Virus record (IMG/VR): IMGVR_UViG_3300037851_000119
Location: 1 to 59,637 of that record
DNA: 59,637 nucleotides
Source of the DNA: a virus
Reading direction: 5' to 3' (one strand)
Notes under the pieces: generated by a model
The model's input: only the letters and a program-made list of their open reading frames with translations
Told to the model about the DNA's origin: nothing
Databases searched by the model: none
Program-made: the position numbers and the translations under genes
Shown here: positions 3,178 to 27,525 of the stretch, piece after piece
How the letters are laid out: every line of letters starts with the position of its first letter
How positions within the stretch are numbered: the first letter of the stretch is position 1

Positions 3178-3180
3178 GCC

Positions 3181-11103: not shown

Positions 11104-12660
11104 ATGGGCAGAGGATTTAATTGGGGAGCCTTCCTTGCTGGTACTGCGGCAGGCATGAACATGGGCACAAAGTACCGCGAACTGAAAAAGCAGGACGCTC
11201 TTGAGGCCGACCTTGGACAGATCGGAGAGAACCAGCAGACAACGCAAGGGGCTGGGCTCAAGATCACGGATAAAGATGGCAACACCAGCACGGCGGTCGT
11301 TGATCCGAGCGCGGGCGGAAACATTGACGAGGCCGTTAAGCAGTACGAGGACGCCGGCTACAAGGTAGAACGGGTCGAGACGCCTCGCTTTGTGAACCGA
11401 CAGGGAAGTGTCGATACCGGAACATTCGACACCAAGGATCAGGCAGATGCGGCCAGGGTAGCAGGAAACTACGATCGCATGGGCAAGATCGCAGATGTGT
11501 ACGACAAGCATGGCAAGTCAGACAAGGCCATGGACATCCGCAAGGCAGTCCGTGATGGCATCAATCAGGAATTGCAGACAAAGCTATCGCTTTCGAGGGA
11601 GAAACGCGATCAGGAGACGCACGACGCCTCCATGGAAGACCGCAATGCAAAGAAGGACGCCGCAAAGCGCACAAGGCTTGTAGGCGAGGCAACCAGCAAG
11701 GCCTACGAGGAGCAGGCCGCGGCCAGGGAAGGCCTTGGCGACCAGCAGCGTTTCACCGGAGACATGGCCCGCCTCGTCCAGGGAGCCGGCCTGGAGCAGC
11801 GCATCAAGGAGGCTGCCGGCCCGAAGGCGACAAAGGACGAGATCCAGGCAGCCATCGAGCAGTACCGCAAGGCCTTGGGTGACGCCGAGTACCAGAAGCG
11901 CAACGCCCAGCAAGAAACCCTGTACGGCCGCATGGCGGAGATCTACGGCATGATCGGCCAGGATCCGGCCAAGGCCGAGGAGTTCAAGAAGATGGCCGAT
12001 GCCGAGGGCCTGATGAAGACGATCGCCATGGTCAAGGAAGGCAACCTCGATGAGGCCAACAAGATCTTCAATGGCTCCGGCGAGGTGCGCGGCTACATCG
12101 TCAGCACCGGCAAGCGGAAATCGACCGGCGACGATCTGGTGGCCCAGGTGGTCAACCCGTACACGGGCGCGATCCAGCACATCAATGTCTCCGAGACCGA
12201 GCGGAACATGATGGGCATGATGGACAAGGCCAAGCTGGAGGAAACCAAGTCCAAGACCGAGGAGAACCGTGCCCAAGCCGGTGCGGCCAGCGCATCCGCA
12301 GAAGCATCCAGGGCCTCCGCCGAGAAGTACCGGGCCGAGGCCGAGGCCGAGAAAACTGGTGGCGGCAAAGCCGGAGAGAGGGCTGCAAACCTACGCAAGG
12401 AATACCAGGGCTACGCGAAGAACGCCCTTGGCATCACCGACACGATGATGACAAAGATCGACGCCAAGGAGGCCGCGCGGCGGGAGAAGATCTACAACCG
12501 CTACATGGCCGAACTTGAATCCGTGATCAATTCTGGCGGCATGCCGAACCACAACGCCATCATGGAGAAGGCGAAGCGCCAGGGCGAGATGGACAAGGTA
12601 ACTGCGCCGAAGGGCGAGAAGAAGGCTCCGAGCGGAAAGGACTACAAAGGCCTCTGGTAG
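11104..12660 (+). CDS. Putative internal virion protein, charged and coiled-coil-like (518 aa)
   Basis: Long K/E/A-rich ORF immediately upstream of the giant gene. Confidence 0.5.
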   Translation: MGRGFNWGAFLAGTAAGMNMGTKYRELKKQDALEADLGQIGENQQTTQGAGLKITDKDGNTSTAVVDPSAGGNIDEAVKQYEDAGYKVERVETPRFVNRQGSVDTGTFDTKDQADAARVAGNYDRMGKIADVYDKHGKSDKAMDIRKAVRDGINQELQTKLSLSREKRDQETHDASMEDRNAKKDAAKRTRLVGEATSKAYEEQAAAREGLGDQQRFTGDMARLVQGAGLEQRIKEAAGPKATKDEIQAAIEQYRKALGDAEYQKRNAQQETLYGRMAEIYGMIGQDPAKAEEFKKMADAEGLMKTIAMVKEGNLDEANKIFNGSGEVRGYIVSTGKRKSTGDDLVAQVVNPYTGAIQHINVSETERNMMGMMDKAKLEETKSKTEENRAQAGAASASAEASRASAEKYRAEAEAEKTGGGKAGERAANLRKEYQGYAKNALGITDTMMTKIDAKEAARREKIYNRYMAELESVINSGGMPNHNAIMEKAKRQGEMDKVTAPKGEKKAPSGKDYKGLW

Positions 12661-12716: not shown

Positions 12717-12729
12717 CTTGCGAGTTGCC

Positions 12730-15700
12730 ATGCCTAAGAAATGGGAAGAAGTACGCCGCTCTGATGCCTTCAAGCGCCTCTCCTCAGAAGAACAAGAAGA
12801 AGCCCGCAACCAATATTTCCGTGATGTCGTTGCCCCGCAGGTAGCGACAGAAGACCTCGAAGCAGTACGCAACAAGTTTGACGAGGACACGGCCCCCAGC
12901 CTGTCCCGCGCCGTCAAGGACTATGCCGGCGATGCCTGGGACGCCATCAACAAGCGCATCCGCCAGGAGCAACCGGAGCGCGATCGTGCCCGCCTGGGCA
13001 TCCTCGAAGACGAGGCCAGGGCCCCTGACAACTCTATTTCTGACCTGACCAACCTCCGCACGGACATCAACAACGTGCGGGCCCGTCTCGGCATGAAACC
13101 CGCGGAGCAGGAGCAGCGTGGCGCCAGCGGATCCTGGGGTGATCCGGTTCCTTCCGCGCCCGCCCCTCTTGCCGGCGTGACGAAGGCCCCAAGCGTGGCA
13201 ATGAACGACCCGCTCAAGACCGAGGGCCTGGAGGTGCTTGGCTCTATCGTTGGCCAGGGCGTCACCCGCCCGCCCGTCCCGACCAATACGCTCGATCGCC
13301 TGAACAACACCACGGAGCAGCAGAAGCGGATCAAGGCTGCCGGCGATGCTGCGGCCCGCAAGATGGTTCCTGGCATGGTTTCGCCCGGAAAGGAGCGTGA
13401 CTACCTCAAGCTGAACAAGGACTCGAAGGGCCTTTCCGCGATCAAGCAGGCGGAGGATGCGGAGCGCAAGCGCATCGCCAAGGAGATCGAGTCCTACGGC
13501 CAGAACTTCGATGAGAACGTGGCCAAGGGACAGTACAAGCCCATGGACGACCGGACTACCGGCGAGACGACCATGGACATGATGAAGGCTACCGCCGAGG
13601 GATTTGCCGCCACCGGCAAGATGATCGGCGATGTCTATGGCCTATCGACCGGCGACATGGACAACTGGCTTTCCAAGGCCGGGGATGAGGCCGTCGATTA
13701 CTGGCGCAAGTCCATGTCTGACTACCAGCAGGCCATGGACGCCTCGAATCAGGCCCAGCTTGCCCAGGTCGAGAAGGATCAAGGCATGTGGGCCGGGTTC
13801 AAGCAGGGCGTCCAGCAGGCCATTGATGACCCGTTGATCGCGGTCGCCCGCCAACTGCCGAACTTCATTGTTGGCGGCGTTGCCGGTGGCGCGGTAAAGG
13901 CAGCGGCGGCGAAGGCATTGCAGACGGCCACCGCGGCCACCCTTGCTGAGATCGGCGCAGGCGGTAACGTCCTGGCCATGGCGGCCATGCAGGGCGCGGA
14001 TGTCGGATCTGACGCCTACCAGAAGATCATTGGCCAGCCACAAGACCAATGGGACATGAATTGGGACTATCAGGAACTCGTCCAAAGTGGCGAGAAGCCG
14101 GAGGTTGCAAAGCAGATCGTTGCCCTGGCGCATGCCCGGGTGGCCGCTGCAAAGGCCGGAGCGGTATCAGTGGCCTCGAACTACATGATCCCTGGCGGCA
14201 TGACGATCGAGAAGATCCTGGCCGGGGCCATGGGCAAGGGAGGGTTCACGGGCGTTATCGGCGGGCTCGTCAAGGGCTATGTCGGCGAGGCTGGACAGGA
14301 GGCGGTAGAGGAAGGTGCTGGCCGCAAGTTAGTCAACGAGGCAGTCCAGAATATTGACGAGAACCAGGGCGCCTATGAGGGTGTCGGTGGCGCGGCCGGC
14401 GTTGGCGCTGGCACGGCCGGCATCATTGGTGGCGCAGCCGGAACCGCTGGCGGAGTCCGTGACTGGATCGCAAAGCGTGGCGTCACCGTGGAGGAACAGG
14501 GCCAGCCTGTACCACCACAGGATACAGCCTTCGATGCCGGCGCCCTGTTTGGCGCGGATCCTGCCGAGGCCGCGGACAAGGCGGATCAGGCCGCCCAGGC
14601 GATCGCTGCCGCTGCACAGGCTGGAGAGGTGGCCCCTGATGCCGACGCACAGGCGATCCAGGCAATCGAGGCGGCAAAGGCCGACCCGAAGCCGGACAAG
14701 ATCGAGGTCGCCGCCCAGGCTATCGCCGCTGCCTCAGAGCAGCAGCCCGCCCCTGCCGGCCCGGAGGTTTCTCTGCCTCCTGCCGCGCAAGGGATCACCA
14801 CCCAGCAACCCGCCGCCGCGCCCCAGGTTCAGGCCCCGCCTCCTCCTCCTGCCGGCCCGATGGTTCGCGCCGCAGAGATCGCCGCGCAACAGGGCGTTAC
14901 CGGGGCCGCCCCGGGCATTGATCAGGCCGTCGATGGCAGCCTGCTACTCGGAGAGGAGGAACAAGAAGATGTCGGCACAGACAATACGCCTGCCGGAGTG
15001 GTTGAGCCTGCCGTACCGGGCGGGACTGATAACGTCCCAGGAGGCGCTGGGCCTGCTGATGTGGGAGCAGGAGGCGTACTTCTCGGAGGCGGAGATACTG
15101 GAGCCGCCGCCGCACCTGTCGCAGGCGATGGACAAGTGCTGCCTGTTCCGGATGCCGGTCAGCCCGACGAGGCACTAGACCAGAAATCTCCTGTCGCCAC
15201 AGAGCAGGACGAGGAGAACATCAAAGAGGCAATCGACCTGCTTCTAAGCGTAGATCTGCCGATCATGAAAGATCGCGCCGCAGAACTCAAAAAGAACCTC
15301 GACCAATGGAAAGCTGGGAAGCGTTCCAAGTGGGCCAGCGAGTTCGATACGGCCGGGGTTCTCGCTGACATCAAGGAATACGTTTCCACATTCAAGAAAG
15401 CGCCGCCAGGGCCGGCATGGGATCCGCAGGCACAGGAGCATGAGGTTCAGCCGCCCATGCCCGGCCAAGTCGTCACCTGGGACACCGAGGACGGCCCGGC
15501 CAGGGGCCGCGTCTCCGACGACCAGAAGCAGGCCCTTGGTTCCGGCACGGTTGTCGAGATCATCGACCACCCCGACAAGGAGGGAAACCCGAAGCACAAG
15601 CGCGTCATCGTCCCGACCGAGAGCCTGACGCCTGACGAAGAGGCCGCCAAGGCCAGGGATGATCTTGATGCCGCGCTTGGGGAACTAGGCGGCATCCTTG

Positions 15701-18700
15701 GCACGGAGGCGGATCGAGTCGAGACGCCGAAGGCTGAGACGGAAGCGCCGAAGGCAGAGACGGAGGCCCCGAAGGAGGAGATGCCGCGCATCGCCACCGA
15801 CGACCGCGCCCCTGACTACACCCCTGAGACGCATGCACAGGTCATCGAGAAGCACCCGGAGAGTGGCGCGATCGGCCCGCAGGAAGGGTTCGAGCCCGAC
15901 AATGCCGACCGCATGGAAGGCGCCAGCGTTGACGAGATCAACGACCGCATCCAAGAGGTCGAGCAGGAACTTGAGGAGGACGCCCGCGCCTACGACGAGA
16001 TCAGGGAACAGGGCACGAAGGCCCTGACTGAGTATGAGCTAGGCATGCGCGAACCCGATGAGGCCGTCGATTTTGCCCTGACGCACCGCGAGAACTACAT
16101 CACCCAGGCCAAGTCGATGCTCGACTACCTGCGCGGCCTCAAGGCCCAGATGGAGGGCAACGACACCCCGGCCACCCGCATGGACTCATGGCAGTACGTT
16201 CCTGCCGATCCGGCCGTCATCGAGAAGGTGGCCGAGAAGCTGGATCTGGAGATTCCGAAGGCCGAGCAGGCCGGCCGCCCGGTCACGATCACGCACGGCA
16301 ATACCTCGATCATCTTCGAGAACAATGGCAAGGGATACGAGCCGACCAGGGCGGTGCTGTTCGACGGCACTCCGCTGATCCGCGGCGAAATGGCGACCCG
16401 CTCCCATGTGATCGACGCGATCAAGGCCTATGCCGACATCAACGTGGCGATCGCCGACGACTGGCTCAAGCATCTACAGCGATACGAGGGATATGCCAAG
16501 AAGGCAGGGGCACTCAAGAAGTTCAACGAAGGCGTTGCCTACCTGACTGACATCAGCAAGGGCAAGGAAATCCCGAATCTGAATCGCATCAACCAGATTG
16601 CGAACTCCATGCGCGGCCTGCCCGGCATGTCCGATGCCGTGGATGCCATGAAGGCGGCGGCCGGCGTATTCGGCAACGCAAAGGCGAAGGCCAAGGCAGA
16701 GCCGCAGCCTACCGCACAGATTTACGAGGACGCCTCGCGGAACCGCGTGATCCGACTGATAAAGGAATCTGGCGGCATCACCATGGACGAGGCCAGCGAC
16801 ATCATTGGCGAAACCGGCCGCCGTGCCGCCCAGCGCATGCCGGGCCTGTTCCGCAACAACGGCAACGGGATCGACCGCATTGCCGAGATGTTCCATGAGT
16901 ACGGCTACCTGACCGATGCCGAGTTCAACGATGTGGACGGCGGTGTGCAGCGGGTACGCGAGATCCTGCGCTCCGCCCTGGACAAGACCGGCTTCGTCGG
17001 CACGATGGCGGAGCAGGAGCGCCATGCTCAACTGCAAGCCATGGAGCAGGAGATCGGCGACAAGCACGGCGAGGCGATCGCTGACGAGGCGATGGTTCTT
17101 ACTGACGCCATCGAGGAAGAGTACGACAATATCCCCTTCACGCCAGCCGAGATCGAGGCGGCCGGGGGCAACGCCAACCCGTTCGGAGACGACAATGGAC
17201 AAACAGGAAATCGCCCAGCGGTTCAAGAAGCTGCCCAAGGACGTGCAAACCAAGGTGTTGCAAATGGCACGGATCAAGCGCAGCCTCAAGAAGGGTTCGG
17301 GCTCGAAGGCTACGACAAGCAAGACATAGCCGAGAAGGACGCCCGCGCCAACGATCAGGCCGCCGCCGACCGGGCGATGGCCGACCGTGAGCGTGACGCC
17401 TTCAACCTGACCGGCCAGACGGCCCAGCGCGAGACGCCGCCAACCGCCGAGATGTTCACCCCTGACGGCAGGGCTACCGATGCCGCCGCCAAGGCAAGGG
17501 CTCTCGAAGACCTGAACGATGCCCTGGCTGACCTGGGCGACATCTTCGGCAAGAACACCCGCCTGTACATGATCACCCCGGAGCAGGAGCAGAAACTTCT
17601 GCCGGTGCTTACTCGCGTCATGGATGCCGCCTTCCGGGCCGGTTACTACACCTTCAAGGAGGCGGCCAAGTTCGTCCTCGACCAGATCCGCGCCAAGCTG
17701 GGAAACAATGTTGCCGACATGATCAGCCTGGATCACCTCCAGGGCGCCTATATCGGTATGGCCGGCAAGTACGGCGACAAAGCCTCGAGCAAGAAAGATG
17801 TCGTTTCCGTCGAGAACATTGCCGATCTAGACAAGGCCGACCAGCCAGCCGCCGTCCCGTCCAAGGCTACGGAGACTGTCCCGCCCCAGGTTACGGAGAT
17901 CCCAGCCCGCGTGAAGGGCGCACCTTTATATATGGAGCCACTTGGGGAGAAGGCCGTCTTGATCCTGGGCGACACCATGGCCAACAAGGATCGCATCAAG
18001 GCAGCCGGCGCGATCTGGAACCGGGCTCACAAGGGCTGGATGTTCCCGAAGGCAAACCTCGCCAAGATGCTCGACAAGCTGGGCGACCTGTTCAAGCCAG
18101 ACGAGAAGACCCTGGCCGTCGAGAAGGCCATGGAGGTCATGCGCCATTTCATGCCCAACAGCCAATACCGCACGATCGAGTGGGGCATGAAGGGCGAGGA
18201 GGGAGAGTTCTTCAAGGACAAGATGATCGAGATGGCCAAGGTCATCGAGGACATGCCGAAGACCTACCAGCAGGACGGCAAGGGCGAAGGCGCCGTGGCC
18301 CATCTGCATTACTTCCGTGGTAGCACAGACTTCTGGATCACCGAGAAGGACAAGGACGGCCCTGGCACGGAGCAAGCCTATGGCCTCGCCTCGCTCTACA
18401 ACGACCCGAACGATGGCGACATGGGCTACATCTCGATTGACGAGATCACGGCCTCCAACGTCGAACTCGACCTGTACTGGACGCCGAAGACCATTGCCGA
18501 GATCAAGGGCAAGGCCGCGCCGGCCAAGACTGAGACGAAACCGGAGCCGACTCCCGCTCCAGCGCAGGAAGACACCGACACCGTGAAGGTGGCCAAGGAG
18601 TTCGCAAAGCGGTTCCAGGCTGGCGAACGCTTCGACTCCATCGTGGACGCCCGCAAGGTGGCCGGCGAGATCCTGGGCAAGGCCGTAACCCCAGGCACGG

Positions 18701-21700
18701 CGATCGCCAAGCAGGTTGACGAGGCGATCGAGTTGGGCGTGGTCATGGAGGCCCGCCGCATCGCCCAGGCCGGCAATGATGCCAAGGCGACCTATGACGC
18801 CCTGGTAGATCTGTACGACCGGCAGCCGAACCTGTCGATGAAGTCCTCGACCTCTGTTGCCAATCAGGCCTACTCGACCCCGGCGCCCCTGGCCTATCTG
18901 GCCTCCAGGCTGGCCGGCATCGACAAGGGCACGACCGTACTCGAACCAACGGCCGGCAACGGCATGCTGCTGATCGAGGCGGCTCCAGCCAAGACCGTAG
19001 CGAACGAGTTGAACGACGACAGAGCCGAGAACCTGCGGGCCATTGGTTTCAACCCGACCACCAAGAACGCTGCGACAGAGAAAATGGCGGCGGAGGTTCC
19101 GGTGCAGGCCGTGATTATGAACCCGCCTTTTGGCACGACCAAGGACGCGGCCGGCACGACGATCGAGTACACGGTTCCACACATCAAGAGCGCGGATGGA
19201 ACCTACAAGACAAACGAGGTTGATCATGCCATCGCCATGAAGAACCTCAAGCACATGAGGGAAAACGGCCGCGCAGTCCTGATCCTTGGCGGAGTAAAGG
19301 CCGAGAACGAGGCGGCCAGGAGTGATGCCTACAACAGCGGGGCAAAGCGCAAGTTCTATTGGGGCCTCTACGGCGAGTACAACGTGGTCGATCACTTCAC
19401 CGTGAACGGCGATCTATACTCGAAGCAGGGCGCCGCTTGGCCGGTCGATGTCGTTGTCATCGAGGGCAGAGGCAAGTCGGCCAGGGCCCTGCCAGCGGTT
19501 GACGTTCCTCGCATCTATAATTCGTGGGAAGACCTGAAAGGGGTACTGGATGAGCAAACTAGCAGACGAGATCGGAATCAAGCTGGAGCGACTCCTGCTC
19601 AAGGAGAAAAACCCGCATCCGACAATGGAGTATCTGGAAAGCCTGCTGGAGGAATCGGGGATCGACCCGTATCTGGAAATCAGGACGGAGAGCCCGGCCA
19701 AGTTCGCGTCGGATCTGAGCAGCATCCTGTCGGAAAACCGGGGGGCGTGGGTCAATCCGGGCAATCTGGACGAGTTCGAGACGGCGGAGGATCTGCTGGC
19801 GGCAATCCTGCCGTAGAGGCGTTCGAGGATAGCGGCCGGGATAGCGTAGTCCTAAACGAAGGAACCCAATTCGCAAAGACCGTACAGGTCGGCGAGGCGT
19901 GGTGGGTGCGCTTCCACACAACCGGAACCAAGGGCAAGCGCATCAACAAGGACGGGAAATACGTCTATACGACCGTACCTGACAACGGAGAATACCAAGA
20001 ACCGGGCATCAAGGTTCTGGCGATCGGCAAGGGCAATAACCCCAACTTCCTTGTAAGCGAGGGCGGTGTTGGCAAGGAAAATGTGCCGACAGTCGTACCT
20101 GCGTCTGACATGATGAAGATGTCCTCCACAAAAGAGGAGCAGGCCGAACACGAAAAGATCGTGGCAGAAAATGCTGCGGCAAGGGCGGCAGAAGAAGATG
20201 CCAATAGAAAGCCCGCCGAGCGCAAGACAGAGAAGGCCTCAGAGGGTCAGGTCAACTACGACCCGGTATCGAAGCAGGGCAATATTGGTACGCTTGTACC
20301 TGCAAACATGCGCGAGGCGGTCAAGTCCGCCCTGGAGAACCTGCAAGATCGCGTAGGCGACCTCGATGCCTTCGTTGCAGAACACCTCGACTACAAGAAG
20401 GAAGACCTGGGCAGCTACTTCTCTGCCGAGCAGGTTGACGCCCTGGCCCTGGCCCTGGACAACCTCGACAACGGCAAGGGCTTCATCATTGGCGACCAGA
20501 CCGGCGTTGGCAAGGGCCGGGTGAACGCTGCCATCATGAAGTGGGCGATCAAGAACGGCAAGACGCCGATCTTCGTCACAGAGAAGCCGAACCTCTACCG
20601 CGACATGCTGCGCGACATGGCCGACATCGGCATGGCCGGCAAGAGCCTTGAGCAGGCAGAAGACGGCGAGAAGATGCGCGGCGTATCAAAACTCGTCCTG
20701 ATGACGAACGCGGATCAGGACATCCCAATCGACGCCGAGGCCATGGAGTGGTTCGAGGAGATGGAGCAGGCCAAGGAGGAGGGGCTGCCTCCGCCGCCGA
20801 AGCCGAAGGAAGGCTTCATGCAAAAGGTATCCGGCCCGAAGCAGAAGGAGCGCCTGGATCGCATGGCGCAGAACGGCCGCCTGGAGGATGGCGCCAAGGT
20901 GGTATTCACGACCTACTCCCAGATCCAGACCGTCAAGGGCAACACCACCGTTCGCAACAAGTTCCTCGACACCTTCGCCAAGGGCGGCATCCTGATTCTT
21001 GACGAGTCCCACAACGCGGGCGGCAGCAGCAACGACAGAGGTGCAAAGAACGATCTCAACCGGGCCGTGCTGGTGCGTCAACTTGCAGGCGCCGCCGATG
21101 GTGTCTTCTATTCGTCGGCCACCTACGCCAAGAACCCTGCCGTGATGGATCTTTACTTCCGCACGGACATGAGCATGGCCGTCAGCAACATGAGCGAGTT
21201 GAAGGGCATCATCGAGAACGGCGGCGTCCCGATGCAGCAGATCCTCGCCAACATGCTCACCGAGGCCGGCCAGTACATGCGCCGGGAGCGTTCCTTCGAG
21301 GGCGTCGAGTACAACACCCCAACGGTCGAGGTGGCCAAGGAAATCGCCAACCAAGTATCGGACGGCATGCGGCAGATCATGGAGTTCTCTGATCTTGTAA
21401 AGGCCGTCACCAATGACATCGACGACGACATCAAGGGCGATGCAGGCAGCGCGTCAGAGGACGGGTCAACTGGCGGCGCCGGGGCGGAGTCCACTAGCTT
21501 CGCCTCCGTGATGCACAACCTGATCGGCCAATACCTGCTGGCGCTAAAGGTCGAGCCAACTATCAAGATGGCCATAGAGTCCCTGAAAGCCGGCGAGAAG
21601 CCTGTTATCACCGTGGCGAACACCATGGAGTCCCTGATCAACGAACTGGCAAAAGACCGCGGCGTTGGCATAGGCGACCCGGTGGATCTTGGCTTTGGCG

Positions 21701-24700
21701 ACCTGTTCGTGCGCTACCTTGAGAAGACCCGCGCCATCACGATCAAGGACGGATTCGGCAACAAGCAGAAGCACTACCTGACCGACGAGGAACTTGGCCC
21801 CGGTGGCGTTGCAATGTACGAGGCGATCAAGCAGTTCTCACTTGGGTCTGATTGGGGTAATACGCCGATCTCACCGATCGACAGGATCAAGGCGGAACTG
21901 GAGAGGGCTGGCTACAAGACCGGCGAGATCACGGGCCGCCAGGGTACGCTGGACTATGCCGGCAAAGACCCGATTTACCGCATGCGCGGCAACAAGGAGC
22001 GTTCCGTTGCCGGCAGAATCAAGACCATCGAGGCCTTCAACAACGGTGACATCGACGTTGTGATCCTGAACCGCGCCGGATCCACGGGCCTGTCCTTGCA
22101 TGCCAGCCCGAAGACCGGCAAGGATCTCCGGCGCCGGCACATGATCATCGCCCAGGCCGAGGCGAACATCGACACCCACATGCAGATGTTGGGCCGCGTC
22201 CACCGTACCGGGCAGGTTATTGCGCCGCGCTACTCGCAACTGGTGGCCAACGTGCCTGCCGAGAACCGCCCTGCCGCCGTCCTGGCGAAGAAGATGGCCA
22301 GCCTGAACGCCAACACCTCCGCCGCCCGGTCGTCTGTCGTGACGGCAAAGGACACCCTGGACTACATGAACGAGTATGGCGACGAGGTGATCGCCAACCT
22401 CATGTATGCCGATCAGGAACTCCACTTCAAGCTGGGCGCCCCGCTCAAGTATGACGACAGCGGCAACGGATTCGAGCCGAAGGACGCCGCCAGAAAGGTG
22501 ACTGGCCGCATCCCGCTCTTGCCACTATCTGATCAGGAGGCACTGTACGAGCAGATCGGCATCGACTACAAGGACTTCCTGGCCATGAAGGAGGCCATGG
22601 GCGAGAACAAGCTGGAGGCCAAGGTCTTCGAGTTGGAGGCGATCCCAACAGACGAGATCGAACTGACCGCCAGAGTCGGCGACAGCACATCTCCGTTCGC
22701 CGCCCCGTCAAAGGCGATCATCTACGACATCAAGCGGATCGGAAAGCCGATGACGGAGGAGGAGCGCACGAACGCGATCCTCAAGTCTCTCGGCAACAAG
22801 GACTCCTGGGGCTGGGCAGCAGACAACCTCAAGGCGATCAAGAGCGAGTACGAGGCCTTCGAGGCCGATGAACTGGCGACCATCGAGGGTCAGCGCACAA
22901 TGGAGGCTACCAAGATGCGCCTGCGCTACCAGTACAACAAGGTGGTGAACGCGATCGAGGAATTCGGCCCAAGCGCCCCGTTTGAACTGATCGATGCGAA
23001 GGGTATGGTCTTCTACGGCGAGGTGCTTGGTCTTGAGCGCAAGGGCAAGGCAAAGAACCCGGCAGCGACCGGGACTTGGAAGATAAGGTTGGCCCTGGCT
23101 GATTCCGCCCGCTCGATCACCATCCCCCTGTCCAAGATCACCTTCGAGGACAAGAAGGAGGCCGGCAAGAGCAGGCTCAAGCTATCTGACAAGCGCACCG
23201 TCGATGACGCTTTCGCTCGCATGCAGGGCGTCTCCCGCGAGAACAGGGTGATCCTTGAGGGCAACCTTGTTGCCGCGTTCAGCACCTTCCCTGGCGGCCA
23301 GATCATCTACTTCAACGGGAACGATGGCCATCTGCGCCAGGGCATCCTGATGCCGCGCAACTTCAACCTCAAGAAGGCCGTGGCCAAGAAGGCCGAGGTG
23401 CTGCGTACACCGGATGAGGCTGTCTCCTTCCTCAAGAAGGATCAGATGAAGCACATGCTGATTGATGACGCCGCCAGCGGCCAGATCGGCTATGTCCGTG
23501 ATCCTCGCTACCGCACCTGGGGCTGGCAGATCTCCGTGCCGTCGAGCAAGAAGTCTGGCGCCAAGTGGTTCCTGAATCAGGACATCCTCACCGCGCTGGG
23601 CGTTGACTTCTTCAAGAGTGGTAGCCGGATGGTTGCCTCTTTCGATGAGTCGCAACTGCCCGCCGTGGTGGCCGCTGTCTATAAGCAGGAGCGCCTGAAA
23701 GGGGTCAACCGCTCCGCCCAGGAGAGTTCCCGCCCGAACGCCGTCAGCGCAGACATGACGGCCAAGGACGTTCGCCGGGCCCTGGATGATCACTTCGGCC
23801 GCGGCATAATCCAATCCATGATCAACGGCGGCATCCTCCAGATCGTTGATCGGATCGACCAACTACCCGAGCATCTTGCCAAGATGTACAAGGGTCGCAC
23901 CGATGTCGATGGCCTCTATGACCCGTATGCCGAGCGCGGCTGGATCATCGCCGAGAACAGCACTCCTGACACCGTTGCCAAGACCCTGATCCATGAGATC
24001 GGCGAACACTACGGCCTGGAGCGCATGCTTGGGCCGGATGAGTACACGCGCATCCTGAACACGGTTCGCTCGATGCACGTTGCCGGGAACCCCGTGGTCA
24101 AAGCCGCCTGGAAGGAGGTCAAGGACTACTATACCCGCGAGGAGGGTAGCCGAGAGTTCCTGCGCGAGGTGCTGGCCAAGGTGGCAGAGCGGGCCGCAGA
24201 CAAGCCGATCGGCGTCCTTGAGCGGATCTACCGGGCCGTGAAGAAGTGGCTGGCCGACAATGGCTGGACGCAACTGAACGACCGCGATCTGCAAGCCCTG
24301 GTGATGGCCTCTCTCCGCAAGTCAACATCTGACGTTCGCACCCTTGTAATCCGCGGCGGCGAGGTCGTGGCTTCGAGCCGAAGCATCCGCGATCGCCTCG
24401 CCTGGGATCAGCAGAACGAAGACAAGAATGGCCCCGTGTTCGAGGCCCCTGACTTCAAGATTATCTCGACCCGTGAACTGTCCACGACCGACGACTTCCA
24501 GCGTGATGGGCTGGCCTTCGGCCATGCGGCCCATGTCCGTGCCGGCAACAAGGCCTACCGCATGGAGATCCTGACGAATGACGGGCGCCGGATCGGCGGC
24601 ATGGACGCGGAGGTGAACGCATTTGGCGAGATCTCGGCCATCCATGACATCGAGTTCAACCGCTACGAGCGCGGCAAAGGGTGGGGTAAAAAGGTGGTGT

Positions 24701-27525
24701 CGTACATCGTAGCCAACAACTATGATGAAGATGCCGTTCGCATCGTGCAGATTGTTGAAGACGCAAAAGCCTTCTGGCGTAAAATGGGGGCACTCGAAGG
24801 AGATCCGTATGGAAACAGTCAAATCGCCTGGGCAGACCATGAGAAATCCGCTCACCGTGGCAAGGGAGGAACGCTGGGCTCAGATGGAGGCGGAAGGCCG
24901 GGAGTTCGAGGCCCAAGTGAAAGCATCCGGGGGGGTCGAGGCGTATCTCAACAAGCGGTTCCCGCAACGCGCCAAGGCGGCCCGTCAGACAAATTCCTAC
25001 AAGCCGTAGGCGGGCGGGCCCTCGCCAAGAGGATTACCTTACCGACCTACAACTACGCGGCTGCCGTACTCGACAGGTTCACCCCTGAGACGGTAAAGGC
25101 CGGGGTAGTTTCAGACTATGGCCTCGATGAGGCCTACACCGACCGGCGAGATGATGTAGAGATCGCCGTCACCAAGCACCTCCGCAGCGCCAAGACCATG
25201 ATCGAGCGGCTGGCCGGCCTGACCAGGGCCGAAAGCCGGGTGGCCTATCAATGGCTGAACGAGAAGCCTGACACGGAACTTGAGCGCCAGCTTTACGCAG
25301 AACTGCCGGAGGCCTCCCGCCGCGTCCTCGATGAGGTCAAGGAGTTTATCGACACCCTCTCCCAGGAGGCGATCGAACTAGGCCAGTTGACCACGGAGGC
25401 CTACGAGCGGAACAAGTACGCCTACCTGCACCGCTCCTATGCCAAGTACACCCTGGACAATGGGAAGACGATGCGGGCCCTCCATGCCCTGCGCCGCCGC
25501 ATCATTGGCGACCAGTACAAGGGACGCGGCCTCAAGTTCTTGGTAGGCATGGACAAGTTGATGGCGGCCGGCAAGCGGGTCAAGCAGGGCGACAAGTTCA
25601 TCCGCCTGGAGAAGAAGGCATCGACCGGCAAGATCACAAAGCGCATCTGGTGGAAGGAGGGCGTCCCGATCCCCGAGGCCTATGCCGCCTTCGAGGTCGA
25701 TCCGAATCCGTGGGAATGGCGATGGACTGACAAGAAGGGCCCTGTCCTATGGCGCGACTTCTCCAAGGAAGAGCGGGAGCAGATGGGGGAACTGGACGAG
25801 GCCCGCTTCGCCATCGTGACGACGATCTCGAAGATGGCCCACGACATCGAGATTGGCAAGTTCTTCGCCTTCGTTGACGAGAACTACGCCGAGGAAAACC
25901 CGCCCCCGGGCGCAGAGGTGATGAAGGCCGTGGACATCGAGCGCGGCAAGATCAACTGGATCGACGCCCTCAAGAAGGGGACATGGGTTCAGGTTCCCGA
26001 CACCAAGATCCAGGGCACAAGCGTCCACAAGTACGGCGCGATCGCCGGCAAGTACGTCCCTGGCCCGATATGGAATGACATTCGCCAGATCGCCAACAAG
26101 CCCGGCGTCTGGGCGTGGTACGACAAGATGATGAAGTATTGGAAGATCTCCAAGACTGCGCTCTCCCCGGCCGTCCACCTCAACAACGTCATGGCCAACT
26201 TCGTCATGGCCGACATGCATGATGTCGGTGTGCGCGAGATCTACGAGGCCGTCACCATCATGGTGAAGGCCAAGAAGGGCAACGCCGATGCCAAGGCTAT
26301 GATCGAGCGGTTCGAGGACTCCGGCGCAATCGCCGGCAGCTTCATCCATGCCGACCTAAAAGACGACCTGATCAATCCGCTCTTGGAGGAACTGCGTGAG
26401 CAGATGAATGGCGACGACGAGATGGCAGGCATGGCCAGTATCGGGACGGTCTTCTCCCTGCTGCATGAGAAGCAATGGAAGCAGGCCACCAATGCCCTGC
26501 TATCCACCAAGGGGGCGGCCCGCGGCAAGAAGGTGGTCGATCTGATGATGAAGGCCTACTCAGGCGAGGATGAGATCTTCCGTCTGGCCGCCTTCCTCAA
26601 GGGAACCAAGGACGGGATGACAGACCGCGAGGCCGGCAAGATGGCCCGCAAGTCGTTCCTAGACTACCGGATCAATGCGCCCTGGATCCAGAACCTACGG
26701 CACACCGTCCTGCCGTTCGTGGCCTTCTCCTACCGGATGCTGCCGATGTATCTCGAGATGTTCGCCAAGAAGCCTTGGAAGCTGGCTAAGTACGCGATCT
26801 TCTCGAACGCCATGGTGGCGATCGGCATGTCCCTGGCCGGCGTTGACGAAGACGACATGGACGAGATCGAGAAGTTGCTGCCGGAAGACAAGCAGGGCAT
26901 CACCCCGTTCCTGACGAATCGCCTTATCCCGCTCGGAAGGGGTGAGGATGATCGGATGATCATGCTCGACATCACCCGCTGGATTCCTCTTGGCGACATC
27001 TTCGAGATGCGCGGCGACACCAGCAACACCATGCCGTTCCTGGCCCCGGCCTATCCGTCCGGCCCGATGATGACGTTGCTCGAGGTGTTCGCCAACAAGA
27101 GCCTGTTCAGCGGCCGGGACATCTGGATGGAAACTGACGCCACGGCAGAGGCCGCCTCCAAGTCGTTCGCGCACATCTGGAAGGGCTGGATGCCTAACTT
27201 CCCGATGCTGCCCGGCACATACTCCACCGACAAGATCATGGCCGCCTACACCGGGGCCACCGATACCTTCGGCCGCGAATACGATCTGGGTCAGGCCTTG
27301 CTGTCGTCTGTCGGCGTGAAGGCCGGGTACTACTCGACAGACACCCTGCGGATGAACGCCTACTACGACTACGACTCCTCGATGGATGAACTGGTGTCCA
27401 GCTACTACTCGCTGGCCCGCCAGTACAACCAGAACAAGATCACCGAGGCCGAGTACGACGAGAGGGCTGCCAAGATCCAGGCGAAGATCGAGGAACTGAC
27501 GCGGAAGTACGAGGAGAAGAACTAG
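12730..27525 (+). CDS. Giant multidomain (polyvalent-type) virion protein of about 4930 aa, with methyltransferase and SNF2/strawberry-notch-like helicase segments
   Basis: Uninterrupted ORF; the track start at 12718 is TTG and the first ATG is 12730. Motifs: VLEPTAGNG and NPPF (19120-19131); GDQTGVGKGR (20491-20520); DESH (21001-21012); QMLGRVHRTGQ (22183-22215). Confidence 0.85.
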   Translation: MPKKWEEVRRSDAFKRLSSEEQEEARNQYFRDVVAPQVATEDLEAVRNKFDEDTAPSLSRAVKDYAGDAWDAINKRIRQEQPERDRARLGILEDEARAPDNSISDLTNLRTDINNVRARLGMKPAEQEQRGASGSWGDPVPSAPAPLAGVTKAPSVAMNDPLKTEGLEVLGSIVGQGVTRPPVPTNTLDRLNNTTEQQKRIKAAGDAAARKMVPGMVSPGKERDYLKLNKDSKGLSAIKQAEDAERKRIAKEIESYGQNFDENVAKGQYKPMDDRTTGETTMDMMKATAEGFAATGKMIGDVYGLSTGDMDNWLSKAGDEAVDYWRKSMSDYQQAMDASNQAQLAQVEKDQGMWAGFKQGVQQAIDDPLIAVARQLPNFIVGGVAGGAVKAAAAKALQTATAATLAEIGAGGNVLAMAAMQGADVGSDAYQKIIGQPQDQWDMNWDYQELVQSGEKPEVAKQIVALAHARVAAAKAGAVSVASNYMIPGGMTIEKILAGAMGKGGFTGVIGGLVKGYVGEAGQEAVEEGAGRKLVNEAVQNIDENQGAYEGVGGAAGVGAGTAGIIGGAAGTAGGVRDWIAKRGVTVEEQGQPVPPQDTAFDAGALFGADPAEAADKADQAAQAIAAAAQAGEVAPDADAQAIQAIEAAKADPKPDKIEVAAQAIAAASEQQPAPAGPEVSLPPAAQGITTQQPAAAPQVQAPPPPPAGPMVRAAEIAAQQGVTGAAPGIDQAVDGSLLLGEEEQEDVGTDNTPAGVVEPAVPGGTDNVPGGAGPADVGAGGVLLGGGDTGAAAAPVAGDGQVLPVPDAGQPDEALDQKSPVATEQDEENIKEAIDLLLSVDLPIMKDRAAELKKNLDQWKAGKRSKWASEFDTAGVLADIKEYVSTFKKAPPGPAWDPQAQEHEVQPPMPGQVVTWDTEDGPARGRVSDDQKQALGSGTVVEIIDHPDKEGNPKHKRVIVPTESLTPDEEAAKARDDLDAALGELGGILGTEADRVETPKAETEAPKAETEAPKEEMPRIATDDRAPDYTPETHAQVIEKHPESGAIGPQEGFEPDNADRMEGASVDEINDRIQEVEQELEEDARAYDEIREQGTKALTEYELGMREPDEAVDFALTHRENYITQAKSMLDYLRGLKAQMEGNDTPATRMDSWQYVPADPAVIEKVAEKLDLEIPKAEQAGRPVTITHGNTSIIFENNGKGYEPTRAVLFDGTPLIRGEMATRSHVIDAIKAYADINVAIADDWLKHLQRYEGYAKKAGALKKFNEGVAYLTDISKGKEIPNLNRINQIANSMRGLPGMSDAVDAMKAAAGVFGNAKAKAKAEPQPTAQIYEDASRNRVIRLIKESGGITMDEASDIIGETGRRAAQRMPGLFRNNGNGIDRIAEMFHEYGYLTDAEFNDVDGGVQRVREILRSALDKTGFVGTMAEQERHAQLQAMEQEIGDKHGEAIADEAMVLTDAIEEEYDNIPFTPAEIEAAGGNANPFGDDNGQTGNRPAVQEAAQGRANQGVANGTDQAQPQEGFGLEGYDKQDIAEKDARANDQAAADRAMADRERDAFNLTGQTAQRETPPTAEMFTPDGRATDAAAKARALEDLNDALADLGDIFGKNTRLYMITPEQEQKLLPVLTRVMDAAFRAGYYTFKEAAKFVLDQIRAKLGNNVADMISLDHLQGAYIGMAGKYGDKASSKKDVVSVENIADLDKADQPAAVPSKATETVPPQVTEIPARVKGAPLYMEPLGEKAVLILGDTMANKDRIKAAGAIWNRAHKGWMFPKANLAKMLDKLGDLFKPDEKTLAVEKAMEVMRHFMPNSQYRTIEWGMKGEEGEFFKDKMIEMAKVIEDMPKTYQQDGKGEGAVAHLHYFRGSTDFWITEKDKDGPGTEQAYGLASLYNDPNDGDMGYISIDEITASNVELDLYWTPKTIAEIKGKAAPAKTETKPEPTPAPAQEDTDTVKVAKEFAKRFQAGERFDSIVDARKVAGEILGKAVTPGTAIAKQVDEAIELGVVMEARRIAQAGNDAKATYDALVDLYDRQPNLSMKSSTSVANQAYSTPAPLAYLASRLAGIDKGTTVLEPTAGNGMLLIEAAPAKTVANELNDDRAENLRAIGFNPTTKNAATEKMAAEVPVQAVIMNPPFGTTKDAAGTTIEYTVPHIKSADGTYKTNEVDHAIAMKNLKHMRENGRAVLILGGVKAENEAARSDAYNSGAKRKFYWGLYGEYNVVDHFTVNGDLYSKQGAAWPVDVVVIEGRGKSARALPAVDVPRIYNSWEDLKGVLDEQTSRRDRNQAGATPAQGEKPASDNGVSGKPAGGIGDRPVSGNQDGEPGQVRVGSEQHPVGKPGGVGQSGQSGRVRDGGGSAGGNPAVEAFEDSGRDSVVLNEGTQFAKTVQVGEAWWVRFHTTGTKGKRINKDGKYVYTTVPDNGEYQEPGIKVLAIGKGNNPNFLVSEGGVGKENVPTVVPASDMMKMSSTKEEQAEHEKIVAENAAARAAEEDANRKPAERKTEKASEGQVNYDPVSKQGNIGTLVPANMREAVKSALENLQDRVGDLDAFVAEHLDYKKEDLGSYFSAEQVDALALALDNLDNGKGFIIGDQTGVGKGRVNAAIMKWAIKNGKTPIFVTEKPNLYRDMLRDMADIGMAGKSLEQAEDGEKMRGVSKLVLMTNADQDIPIDAEAMEWFEEMEQAKEEGLPPPPKPKEGFMQKVSGPKQKERLDRMAQNGRLEDGAKVVFTTYSQIQTVKGNTTVRNKFLDTFAKGGILILDESHNAGGSSNDRGAKNDLNRAVLVRQLAGAADGVFYSSATYAKNPAVMDLYFRTDMSMAVSNMSELKGIIENGGVPMQQILANMLTEAGQYMRRERSFEGVEYNTPTVEVAKEIANQVSDGMRQIMEFSDLVKAVTNDIDDDIKGDAGSASEDGSTGGAGAESTSFASVMHNLIGQYLLALKVEPTIKMAIESLKAGEKPVITVANTMESLINELAKDRGVGIGDPVDLGFGDLFVRYLEKTRAITIKDGFGNKQKHYLTDEELGPGGVAMYEAIKQFSLGSDWGNTPISPIDRIKAELERAGYKTGEITGRQGTLDYAGKDPIYRMRGNKERSVAGRIKTIEAFNNGDIDVVILNRAGSTGLSLHASPKTGKDLRRRHMIIAQAEANIDTHMQMLGRVHRTGQVIAPRYSQLVANVPAENRPAAVLAKKMASLNANTSAARSSVVTAKDTLDYMNEYGDEVIANLMYADQELHFKLGAPLKYDDSGNGFEPKDAARKVTGRIPLLPLSDQEALYEQIGIDYKDFLAMKEAMGENKLEAKVFELEAIPTDEIELTARVGDSTSPFAAPSKAIIYDIKRIGKPMTEEERTNAILKSLGNKDSWGWAADNLKAIKSEYEAFEADELATIEGQRTMEATKMRLRYQYNKVVNAIEEFGPSAPFELIDAKGMVFYGEVLGLERKGKAKNPAATGTWKIRLALADSARSITIPLSKITFEDKKEAGKSRLKLSDKRTVDDAFARMQGVSRENRVILEGNLVAAFSTFPGGQIIYFNGNDGHLRQGILMPRNFNLKKAVAKKAEVLRTPDEAVSFLKKDQMKHMLIDDAASGQIGYVRDPRYRTWGWQISVPSSKKSGAKWFLNQDILTALGVDFFKSGSRMVASFDESQLPAVVAAVYKQERLKGVNRSAQESSRPNAVSADMTAKDVRRALDDHFGRGIIQSMINGGILQIVDRIDQLPEHLAKMYKGRTDVDGLYDPYAERGWIIAENSTPDTVAKTLIHEIGEHYGLERMLGPDEYTRILNTVRSMHVAGNPVVKAAWKEVKDYYTREEGSREFLREVLAKVAERAADKPIGVLERIYRAVKKWLADNGWTQLNDRDLQALVMASLRKSTSDVRTLVIRGGEVVASSRSIRDRLAWDQQNEDKNGPVFEAPDFKIISTRELSTTDDFQRDGLAFGHAAHVRAGNKAYRMEILTNDGRRIGGMDAEVNAFGEISAIHDIEFNRYERGKGWGKKVVSYIVANNYDEDAVRIVQIVEDAKAFWRKMGALEGDPYGNSQIAWADHEKSAHRGKGGTLGSDGGGRPGVRGPSESIRGGRGVSQQAVPATRQGGPSDKFLQAVGGRALAKRITLPTYNYAAAVLDRFTPETVKAGVVSDYGLDEAYTDRRDDVEIAVTKHLRSAKTMIERLAGLTRAESRVAYQWLNEKPDTELERQLYAELPEASRRVLDEVKEFIDTLSQEAIELGQLTTEAYERNKYAYLHRSYAKYTLDNGKTMRALHALRRRIIGDQYKGRGLKFLVGMDKLMAAGKRVKQGDKFIRLEKKASTGKITKRIWWKEGVPIPEAYAAFEVDPNPWEWRWTDKKGPVLWRDFSKEEREQMGELDEARFAIVTTISKMAHDIEIGKFFAFVDENYAEENPPPGAEVMKAVDIERGKINWIDALKKGTWVQVPDTKIQGTSVHKYGAIAGKYVPGPIWNDIRQIANKPGVWAWYDKMMKYWKISKTALSPAVHLNNVMANFVMADMHDVGVREIYEAVTIMVKAKKGNADAKAMIERFEDSGAIAGSFIHADLKDDLINPLLEELREQMNGDDEMAGMASIGTVFSLLHEKQWKQATNALLSTKGAARGKKVVDLMMKAYSGEDEIFRLAAFLKGTKDGMTDREAGKMARKSFLDYRINAPWIQNLRHTVLPFVAFSYRMLPMYLEMFAKKPWKLAKYAIFSNAMVAIGMSLAGVDEDDMDEIEKLLPEDKQGITPFLTNRLIPLGRGEDDRMIMLDITRWIPLGDIFEMRGDTSNTMPFLAPAYPSGPMMTLLEVFANKSLFSGRDIWMETDATAEAASKSFAHIWKGWMPNFPMLPGTYSTDKIMAAYTGATDTFGREYDLGQALLSSVGVKAGYYSTDTLRMNAYYDYDSSMDELVSSYYSLARQYNQNKITEAEYDERAAKIQAKIEELTRKYEEKN
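14969..15178 (+). CDS. Nested +1-frame ORF A (69 aa) inside the giant gene
   Basis: AGGAGG (14954-14959) lies 9 nt before the ATG. By hand count, GC3 is 63/69 here versus 32/70 for the giant frame over the same bases. Peptide: MSAQTIRLPEWLSLPYRAGLITSQEALGLLMWEQEAYF... Confidence 0.5.
   Translation: MSAQTIRLPEWLSLPYRAGLITSQEALGLLMWEQEAYFSEAEILEPPPHLSQAMDKCCLFRMPVSPTRH
17195..17329 (+). CDS. Nested +1-frame ORF B (44 aa) inside the giant gene
   Basis: GGAG (17185-17188) lies 6 nt before the ATG. GC3 is 35/44 versus 17/45 for the giant frame. Peptide: MDKQEIAQRFKKLPKDVQTKVLQMARIKRSLKK... Confidence 0.4.
   Translation: MDKQEIAQRFKKLPKDVQTKVLQMARIKRSLKKGSGSKATTSKT
18280..18470 (+). other. DUF2958-like segment of the giant protein
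   Basis: HLHYFRGSTDFWITEKD...YGLASL...GYISIDEI matches the DUF2958 pattern as I remember it. Confidence 0.45.
18790..19540 (+). other. N6-adenine DNA methyltransferase segment of the giant protein
   Basis: SAM-binding motif VLEPTAGNGML (18937-18969) and catalytic NPPF (19120-19131). Confidence 0.75.
19550..19816 (+). CDS. Nested +1-frame ORF C (88 aa) inside the giant gene
   Basis: AAGGGGT (19538-19544) lies 5 nt before the ATG. An in-frame TGA sits 4 codons upstream. GC3 is 69/88 versus about 33/89 for the giant frame. The peptide looks helical and acidic. Confidence 0.5.
   Translation: MSKLADEIGIKLERLLLKEKNPHPTMEYLESLLEESGIDPYLEIRTESPAKFASDLSSILSENRGAWVNPGNLDEFETAEDLLAAILP
20260..22420 (+). 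other. Strawberry-notch / SNF2-type helicase segment of the giant protein
   Basis: GDQTGVGKGR P-loop, DESH box, and motif VI QMLGRVHRTGQ. Confidence 0.7.
24553..24792 (+). other. GNAT-like segment of the giant protein
   Basis: EISAIHDIEFNRYERGKGWGKKVVSYIV...AKAFWRKMGA resembles the acetyl-CoA-binding core of GNATs. DNA here is locally AT-richer. Confidence 0.4.
24809..25009 (+). CDS. Nested +1-frame ORF D (66 aa) inside the giant gene
   Basis: AAGGAG (24797-24802) lies 6 nt before the ATG. GC3 is 48/66 versus 32/67 for the giant frame. Peptide: METVKSPGQTMRNPLTVAREERWAQMEAEGREFEAQVK... Confidence 0.45.
   Translation: METVKSPGQTMRNPLTVAREERWAQMEAEGREFEAQVKASGGVEAYLNKRFPQRAKAARQTNSYKP

Follow-up and report, generated by a model that had tools for sequence, protein, structure and literature searches.

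A conserved family of putative small acidic proteins written in the +1 frame of an inter-domain linker of a giant phage gene

Can the linkers between the domains of a giant phage protein double as genes for other proteins? The question is raised by IMG/VR virus record IMGVR_UViG_3300037851_000119, a phage genome segment of 59,637 nucleotides (nt) that was analysed whole (positions 1–59,637; hereafter, the window). It carries a giant open reading frame (ORF) with four small ORFs nested in its +1 frame, each led by a Shine-Dalgarno (SD) motif. Through each of these linkers the giant frame reads as a hydrophilic Gly/Arg/Ser/Gln-rich tether, with the absence of stop codons as its sole visible constraint. 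The initial annotation took the four as cases of gene-within-gene coding at domain boundaries. Our results suggest that the giant gene is very probably dual-coding in its inter-domain linkers, with separate small genes held in the +1 frame. The proposal is decisively supported for the third nested ORF (ORF3), as a real embedded gene of a conserved acidic protein family, and is reasonable for ORF1, which has one homologue; ORF2 and ORF4 have codon evidence only. The features concerned are as follows (aa, amino acids; pI, isoelectric point; SF2, superfamily 2):

12718..27525, + strand: giant ORF, 4,935 codons with a single terminal stop; likely start ATG 12730
14954..14959, + strand: SD motif AGGAGG of ORF1, 9 nt upstream of its ATG
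14969..15178, + strand: nested ORF1, +1 frame, 69 aa, pI 5.2; probable embedded gene
17185..17188, + strand: SD-like GGAG of ORF2, 6 nt upstream of its ATG
17195..17329, + strand: nested ORF2, +1 frame, 44 aa, pI 10.9; candidate only
18580..19542, + strand: N6-adenine methylase domain, NPPF motif at residue ~2135
19538..19543, + strand: SD-like AAGGGG of ORF3, 6 nt upstream of its ATG
19550..19816, + strand: nested ORF3, +1 frame, 88 aa, pI 4.35; putative embedded gene, short-form family member
20230..23667, + strand: Strawberry-notch-type SF2 helicase module, in frame with the methylase, no stop between
24797..24802, + strand: SD motif AAGGAG of ORF4, 6 nt upstream of its ATG
24809..25009, + strand: nested ORF4, +1 frame, 66 aa, pI 9.9; candidate only

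The four ATG-started ORFs lie inside the giant ORF where they had been placed, and each ATG follows an SD motif as described (AGGAGG, GGAG, AAGGGG and AAGGAG, with spacings of 6–9 nt). Such a motif precedes just 6.6% of all ATGs in the giant gene. The hand counts of G+C at third codon positions (GC3) also agree with our recount, which gave 64/70, 36/45, 70/89 and 49/67 for the nested frames of ORF1 to ORF4, stop included. Over the same segments the giant frame scores 33/71, 18/46, 33/90 and 33/68, and the whole giant gene has a GC3 of 0.78. The codons singled out as rare are enriched 3- to 16-fold within the four segments relative to the rest of the giant gene (per 1000 codons, inside versus outside: GGA, 109 and 6.7; CAA, 69 and 7.3; AAT, 29 and 7.1; GTA, 25.5 and 7.7; TCT, 21.8 and 5.2). 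Furthermore, a codon-usage log-likelihood scan of the whole 14.8-kb gene found that the +1 frame beats frame 0 solely at the four ORFs and in the first ~100 nt.

Part of this signature follows from composition. The high nested GC3 is partly automatic, because the +1 third position is the giant first position and codons for Gly, Ala, Pro, Arg, Asp, Glu and Gln start with G or C. Hydrophilic linkers are also open in the +1 frame by default, because a +1 stop requires a T in the second position of a giant-frame codon, and only codons for hydrophobic residues have one there. Since hydrophilic linkers avoid this T, a long +1 ORF is insufficient as proof, even when found in every linker, and we used shuffling, substitution-position and conservation tests instead. 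In the null model, the giant-frame peptide was kept fixed and synonymous codons were drawn from the giant gene's own usage (5000 simulations). Openness of the +1 frame by itself was not significant in the window given the peptide (P 0.47–0.81). The giant-frame GC3 of the four segments was 0.37–0.49 versus an expected 0.76–0.80, with z between −5.9 and −9.7 (ORF1 −5.9, ORF2 −7.2, ORF4 −6.5), and the +1 coding score of each segment was surpassed in at most 1 of the 5000 simulations (ORF1, P 2e-4). As a control, five other hydrophilic low-complexity stretches of the giant gene had a GC3 of 0.60–0.82. The anomaly that needs explanation is the synonymous codon choice of the giant frame, which is beyond the reach of composition.

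Relatives of the locus allowed this choice to be followed across genomes. Protein homologues of the methylase-linker-helicase segment are plentiful in homology searches. A single-protein scan of IMG/VR with the segment gave no match, and the relatives came from alignment-based scans of metagenomes, IMG/VR and GTDB genomes, which yielded 240 loci. Matches to the module numbered 207 viral, 503 metagenomic and 243 genomic in these scans, and tblastn found relatives on 625 plasmids. The carriers include cyanobacteria, Alpha-, Beta- and Gammaproteobacteria, Desulfovibrio, Acidobacteria and candidate-phyla bacteria; many of the related viral contigs are ~60 kb long, as is the window. We surveyed the ORF3 family in 234 loci that have both methylase and helicase anchors (GC 0.37–0.72). 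One relative, L001 (JGI 3300072491), is a 59,612-bp contig of almost the window's length with an intact ORF3-type nested ORF; its helicase region (3100–4750) has at least five frame changes plus stops, most likely long-read assembly errors.

The layout recurs throughout the survey, and an ORF3-family gene is predicted right after the methylase in essentially every member of the methylase/Strawberry-notch-helicase clade. Methylase and helicase share one frame, with zero giant-frame stops across a linker of 288–909 nt, in 233 of the 234 loci. A long +1 ORF is present in the linker of all (median 132 aa, ~90% of the linker), and the +2 frame is open for 13–165 aa, typically 20–60. The alignment of homologues that the initial annotation proposed as a check favoured ORF3, since its frame stays open, without nested stops, in 233/234 loci. 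The nested ATG lies 8–14 nt past the methylase anchor in 184/234 loci, and an SD core (AAGGAG, GGAGG or AAAGGA) precedes it in 205/234. ORF3 of the window conforms to this position, with its ATG at an offset of 8 nt after the methylase end and its stop before the helicase. A conserved giant-frame motif, LKEKLNE, is simultaneously the SD, the spacer, the +1 stop and the ATG; in the window, the last methylase codons (LKGVLD) double as the SD and ATG of ORF3.

Synonymous shuffling of the giant frame predicts 168 stops in the +1 frame of 73 distinct linkers (from the first 81 loci and the window), and none is observed; in AT-rich genomes, 5–8 such stops are expected per linker. Reciprocally, synonymous shuffling of the nested frame predicts 470 giant-frame stops in 204 distinct sequences and again none is observed. 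Thus, both frames are held open. The frames differ in what else is conserved. The giant-frame GC3 of the linkers is steady at 0.3–0.5, whereas that of the flanking domains ranges from 0.22 to 0.93 and tracks genome GC. The third position of the giant frame behaves in the linker like a second codon position and is the most conserved position there. Among 31 related pairs, linker mismatches fall on nested codon positions 1:2:3 in the ratio 840:525:1249, and flanking mismatches on giant codon positions in the ratio 215:128:669 (methylase) and 212:106:739 (helicase). Amino-acid-level selection therefore switches frame at the linker. Close pairs have the same skew on nested positions 1, 2 and 3 (L005/L006: 1, 0, 8; L025/L048: 4, 5, 14; L012/L078: 17, 13, 39). 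These patterns indicate that the nested frame of ORF3 is the one under purifying selection at the amino-acid level.

The peptide belongs to a recognizable family. A profile built without the window matched ORF3 alone among the window's 1,140 six-frame ORFs (hmmsearch, E 2.6e-7), and tblastn matched ORF3 to the linkers of L045 (1e-8), L029, L017, L036, L137 and L023. BLASTP gave no match between ORF3 and the nested peptide of L001, and a global alignment of the two gave a z of ~5 against shuffles. Family members are ~90–180 aa long and acidic (median pI 4.5, net charge −9.5), and their alignment has a hydrophobic pattern with the motifs W-x-P near the N-terminus, RV..L, N.NL, and E..L..W near the C-terminus. 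An AlphaFold2 (AF2) model of a 130-aa member, made with a 20-sequence alignment of database members, has short strands and six helices and is confident (predicted local distance difference test [pLDDT] 91.7, predicted template modelling score [pTM] 0.85). ORF3 itself departs from the full-length alpha/beta fold, as an 88-aa short form without the N-terminal W-P strand segment; ~20 other loci carry the same short form. Foldseek gave no meaningful structural match in PDB or BFVD for the models of ORF3 and of the 130-aa member (best TM ~0.2–0.3, E >2), the family profile had no match among PDB sequences, and the family had none in Pfam, NCBIfam, PHROGs or PADLOC. In an exhaustive HMMER search of 1.84 billion representative proteins, 181 clusters matched the profile, and the few hits of a word-indexed profile search that bear any name are all called 'hypothetical protein'.

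One member has reached RefSeq as WP_230844304.1, on plasmid pGMOR1 of Gloeobacter morelensis (hhalign 97%). There (L252, 2303–2752) the nested ORF is annotated, the helicase coding sequence is begun at an internal ATG, and the giant frame is open throughout. On plasmid pAQ6 of Synechococcus sp. PCC 7002 (L253, 2204–2710), an unannotated nested ORF of 168 aa lies inside SYNPCC7002_RS15125. We also found the ORF3-family domain away from any methylase-helicase:

L085, 1899–2291: free-standing copy after an HsdR-like gene; giant-equivalent frame broken by stops
L249, 2101–2910: copy in a small primase/excisionase-type element; giant-equivalent frame has stops
L250, 1472–2407: copy outside any overlap; giant-equivalent frame has stops

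The free-standing copies begin at the same residue as the nested ones. In other proteins the domain is fused to a transmembrane segment and ankyrin repeats (P0106) or to T5orf172 and a zinc ribbon (P0121), or is followed by a ~200-aa domain of unknown kind. P0132, P0142 and P0147 are further members with the domain outside a methylase-helicase setting. The confident predicted fold, together with the free-standing and fused copies, lends indirect support to the nested product actually being made.

Could the nested ORFs be untranslated by-products of ordinary disordered tethers that are open in the +1 frame by default? The non-significant openness in the window is what such an artefact would give. 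Meaningless +1 ORFs also abound in GC-rich giant genes (81 giant ORFs contain 726 that are 40 aa or longer), and K/R-rich peptides resembling ORF2 look like by-products. However, composition alone leaves unexplained why the giant-frame third position is the most conserved and why giant-frame GC3 keeps to 0.3–0.5 despite a genome GC3 of 0.22–0.93; nor does it predict a conserved SD-ATG, zero +1 stops where 168 are expected, a family fold modelled with a pLDDT of 91.7, or free-standing copies. We regard it as an unlikely account of the locus: it is excluded for ORF3 and ORF1 and may apply to ORF2 and ORF4. Programmed +1 frameshifting out of the giant frame would produce truncated isoforms (for example, a methylase with a nested C-terminal extension) that terminate at the same nested stop as an internally initiated product, and the initial annotation had considered frameshift-terminated isoforms. 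The +1 frame is indeed open for more than 20 codons upstream of the ATG in 25 of the 207 relatives over which stop distances were counted; in the window, it is open from 14354 to 15178, thus extending upstream of ORF1. Yet a +1 stop lies directly before the nested ATG in 74 of the 207 relatives and within five codons in 96 more, which argues for internal initiation over frameshifting at ORF3. Furthermore, the nested ATG and SD are themselves conserved, and free-standing copies share the start residue. With +1 stops at 0–5 codons in 170/207 relatives, the region upstream of ORF3 does not have the layout of a frameshift site, no search for slippery motifs having been made. The isoform idea is disfavoured for ORF3, and we consider frameshifting highly improbable as an explanation of the locus.

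Sequencing or assembly errors, or a recent pair of compensated frameshifts, could in principle make genuine giant-protein sequence appear in a nested frame, and the many frame switches of L001 illustrate such errors, though in its helicase part. The two-frame layout, with an equivalent nested stop, nevertheless appears in 233 loci of viral, plasmid, genomic or metagenomic origin that were assembled independently, and the giant frame is never interrupted. Nor can the nested ORFs be read back into the giant protein, because they end in stop codons. This explanation is refuted for ORF3, and its overall probability is negligible. An evolutionary relic would come about if small genes between separate methylase and helicase genes had been read through when these fused and are now functionless. 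The genome-typical codon usage of the nested frame, which the giant frame does not share, fits an older nested frame, as does the existence of free-standing copies. The close pairs described above, however, still bear the mark of purifying selection on the nested frame. A dead frame would also gather stops, above all in AT-rich genomes, and the nested frame is open in all loci across the GC range of 0.37–0.72. Widespread loss of the nested start, or nested stops in a giant gene otherwise kept, was not seen among the relatives. We consider a functionless relic extremely improbable, though its origin story is compatible with present function.

The other nested ORFs are less well populated with relatives. 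The suggested search with the four peptides returned many relatives for ORF3, one lineage for ORF1 and none for ORF2 and ORF4. The ORF1 homologue is nested at +1 in the 4,321-codon giant ORF of the L056/L057 lineage (GC 0.56; phmmer 2e-8), at an analogous site that follows a Gly/Ala-rich N-terminal domain and a stretch of low complexity. The two ORFs share their start (M-AQ..LP[ED]W), a similar length and the same position-specific GC anomaly, and they align better in the nested frame (z 11.1) than in the giant frame (z 4.0). Given this nested homologue, the frame-specific score and the GC anomaly, ORF1 is probably real, that is, a second embedded gene. IMG/VR scans gave no close relative of the ORF1, ORF2 or ORF4 peptide. 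The four peptides had nothing significant in Pfam, PHROGs, NCBIfam or PADLOC scans; concatenated, they had no match among 5.8 billion proteins in a word-indexed search and no tblastn match in phage and plasmid collections.

For ORF4, a homologue was absent from 247 loci, IMG/VR, phages, plasmids and protein databases, and the 9 relatives that share the C-terminal domain downstream of it lack the linker and have no nested ORF. The 40 relatives that share the domain downstream of ORF2 (the aa-1609 domain) have unrelated upstream regions without a conserved nested ORF. A codon-scan-positive +1 ORF of L056 (2105–2269), which follows an acidic D-IP[FW] and is a positional analogue of ORF2, was rejected as a homologue, its similarity not being significant. 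We put the chances that ORF2 and ORF4 are genuine at roughly even. Other linkers of the relatives contain SD-led +1 ORFs for basic amphipathic-helix peptides that a self-trained codon scan scored as coding:

L018, 6906–7082: +1 ORF, basic helix
L068, 1600–1809: +1 ORF, basic helix
L028, 5084–5284: +1 ORF, basic helix
L023, 8385–8567: +1 ORF, basic helix
L040, 6059–6214: +1 ORF, basic helix
L026, 4862–5080: +1 ORF, basic helix

Applied to the giant ORFs of the window and of the first 84 loci, the scan flagged 93 segments in the +1 frame and 14 in the +2 frame. The flagged +1 segments in relatives may represent additional embedded genes or may have arisen as by-products of acidic linkers.

Several points weigh against reading the linkers as dual-coding or temper how far that reading extends. 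All four nested ORFs are known here from sequence alone, and we infer their translation. The related loci do not count as phylogenetically independent samples. Third-position changes, divided by those at the first and second positions together, give 0.9 in the nested frame of ORF3 and ~2 in the flanking domains; the nested protein is therefore fast-evolving, or the giant frame places some constraint on its third positions. The ORF3 of the window is a divergent short form, with 11–37% identity to other members, and its single-sequence AF2 model (four helices) reaches a pLDDT of just 72.7. The ORF1 homologue in L057 is not preceded by a good SD. ORF2 and ORF4 have a codon signature and an SD but no detectable relatives, and basic K/R-rich +1 peptides can arise incidentally where acidic linkers use codons ending in A. 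A partner role for the ORF3 family, discussed below, is proposed only from co-occurrence, acidity (the low median pI) and domain fusions.

The giant product combines the N6-adenine methylase (NPPF) and the Strawberry-notch-type SF2 helicase with a HEIGEH metalloprotease-like motif and a large C-terminal domain. Pfam AAA_34, ResIII and Helicase_C_4 match its residues 2567–3226. The order of an NPPF N6-adenine methylase upstream of an SF2 helicase in one polypeptide is that of a DarB-like dyad. The window also encodes a terminase, portal, major head protein, tail fibre and internal virion protein, and the giant ORF is placed 3′ of the internal virion protein gene (phrog_511) and a virion structural protein gene. 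This gene context suggests that the giant product is likely a polyvalent virion protein. Megablast against a phage collection found no near relative of the giant gene, and an IMG/VR scan found no close relative of the C-terminal third of the protein. The ORF is listed with a TTG start at 12718, which is probably wrong; ATG 12730 is more likely. In the first ~100 nt of the ORF (12733–12822), the +1 frame outscores the giant frame.

Other stretches of the giant frame also attracted our attention. Just before the ORF2 linker (17113–17139) it reads EEEYDNIPF, which resembles the acidic C-terminal tip (DDDIPF) of bacterial single-stranded DNA-binding protein (SSB); in L056, DDSDIPW precedes the positional analogue of ORF2. 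EEEYDNIPF may be a partner-recruiting mimic of the SSB tail inside a polyvalent protein. An extra giant-frame domain of ~120 residues (FEDSGRDSVV...GKGNNPNF) lies at 19817–20229, between ORF3 and the helicase. It is absent from most relatives, in which the nested ORF fills nearly the whole linker. P0006, P0010 and L009 (~12000–12250) have an intein-like insertion (CVSGGTRIYDP... or CVAGHTMIFDP...) right after GFIIGDQ of the helicase Walker A.

Same-strand embedded genes are known, so the kind itself is not new; lambda Rz/Rz1, phiX174 and the 'genes-in-genes' of Synechocystis are examples. In phage lambda, the whole of the spanin gene Rz1 is contained in the +1 frame of the spanin gene Rz; its product is a lipoprotein, which in lysis forms a pair with the product of the host frame. 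Like Rz1, the nested ORFs described here are same-strand small genes inside the +1 frame of a larger gene, with their own start in one mRNA region, as far as can be told from sequence. The ORF3 family also has the attributes by which Rz/Rz1 is recognized: both frames are open beyond chance, the embedded frame has its own start signal, and it is under purifying selection. Unlike Rz, however, the host frame is a disordered linker of a putative virion polyvalent protein of 4,935 residues, the embedded product is predicted to be acidic, soluble and globular, one host gene holds up to four putative embedded genes, and the arrangement is conserved over phages, plasmids and chromosomal elements of many phyla. 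In phiX174, B lies within A and E within D. Classic overprinting, for which genome compaction is the rationale, usually yields a new frame that is disordered and has atypical codon usage. As in phiX174, both frames of one stretch would encode protein, one biased and disordered and the other ordered. In contrast to phiX174, it is the nested frame that has genome-typical usage and an ordered (predicted) fold and the giant frame that is atypical, and a genome of ~60 kb or larger is not under comparable size pressure. Synechocystis slr0489, slr1079 and slr1082 are spanin-like 'genes-in-genes' (bioRxiv 10.64898/2025.12.20.695498).

The methylase-helicase dyad of polyvalent proteins has P1 DarB as its archetype, and the account of these proteins makes no mention of overlapping frames or linkers (Iyer et al., 2017; PMC5512222). 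As in DarB-like dyads, the adenine methylase is N-terminal to an SF2 helicase, within a multidomain protein that a phage or conjugative element encodes among virion genes. P1 DarB, which we examined, differs: its methylase and helicase are separated by a structured region of 500 residues, and both the linker and the nested ORF are lacking. Among the dyads, the nested gene is a marker of the Strawberry-notch (AAA_34/Helicase_C_4) branch. The initial annotation did not know the arrangement from described phages, and we likewise found no prior account of a conserved family in polyvalent-protein linkers in the full-text literature (subscription-only work lay outside the search) and no matching family in Pfam, NCBIfam, PHROGs or PADLOC. 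What is new is a deeply conserved family, predicted to fold well, that is encoded within the disordered linker of a giant, probably transferred protein and spans phages, plasmids and chromosomal elements. Several such embedded genes probably share one host gene.

We propose that ribosomes would start internally on the giant mRNA, at an SD-ATG written into the last methylase codons (the LKEKLNE-type motif), to yield a small protein separate from the giant polypeptide. Encoding it in cis would keep the protein always co-inherited and co-expressed with the methylase-helicase dyad. Type III secretion chaperones are small acidic partners of transferred effectors, and DNA mimics that counter restriction, such as Ocr and ArdA, are also small and acidic. 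Like these, the ORF3 family is small, strongly acidic and encoded beside (here, inside) the gene of a protein that is probably delivered to another cell; the analogy is functional only, and the family has no sequence or fold similarity to any of them. Our best guess, held with low certainty, is that the ORF3-family protein could be an acidic partner of the methylase-helicase, acting as an assembly or packaging chaperone, a packaging adaptor, or a regulator of its activity. A DNA-mimic role is a weaker, speculative alternative, and the initial annotation's suggestion of chaperones or inhibitors of the neighbouring enzymatic domains is likewise speculative. The codon-usage asymmetry and the free-standing copies suggest that the small genes may predate the giant ORF, which would read through them. 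More broadly, and as a proposal that we find possible but not probable, the polyvalent genes of phages, plasmids and integrative elements could hold a hidden layer of several +1 linker genes. Giant ORFs would then have been built by −1-frame read-through of older small genes, reversing the usual direction of overprinting, and the ORF3 family would supply the widespread methylase/Strawberry-notch-helicase anti-restriction module with an obligate, hitherto unnoticed subunit or regulator.

The ORF3 family is almost invisible because gene callers forbid same-strand nested genes, and yet it accompanies a module that is present on the 625 plasmids and on hundreds of viral, metagenomic and genome contigs. 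Work that expresses the 'linker' of a DarB-like methylase-helicase would also express, or silently mutate, a second protein. Disordered linkers can, on this evidence, host ordered proteins in another frame, and the ordered frame can dominate the evolution of the shared DNA. The family offers a clean, deeply conserved natural case for studying how overlapping genes evolve and for annotation methods, and its product would give injected proteins, a class that is still poorly understood, a concrete candidate partner.

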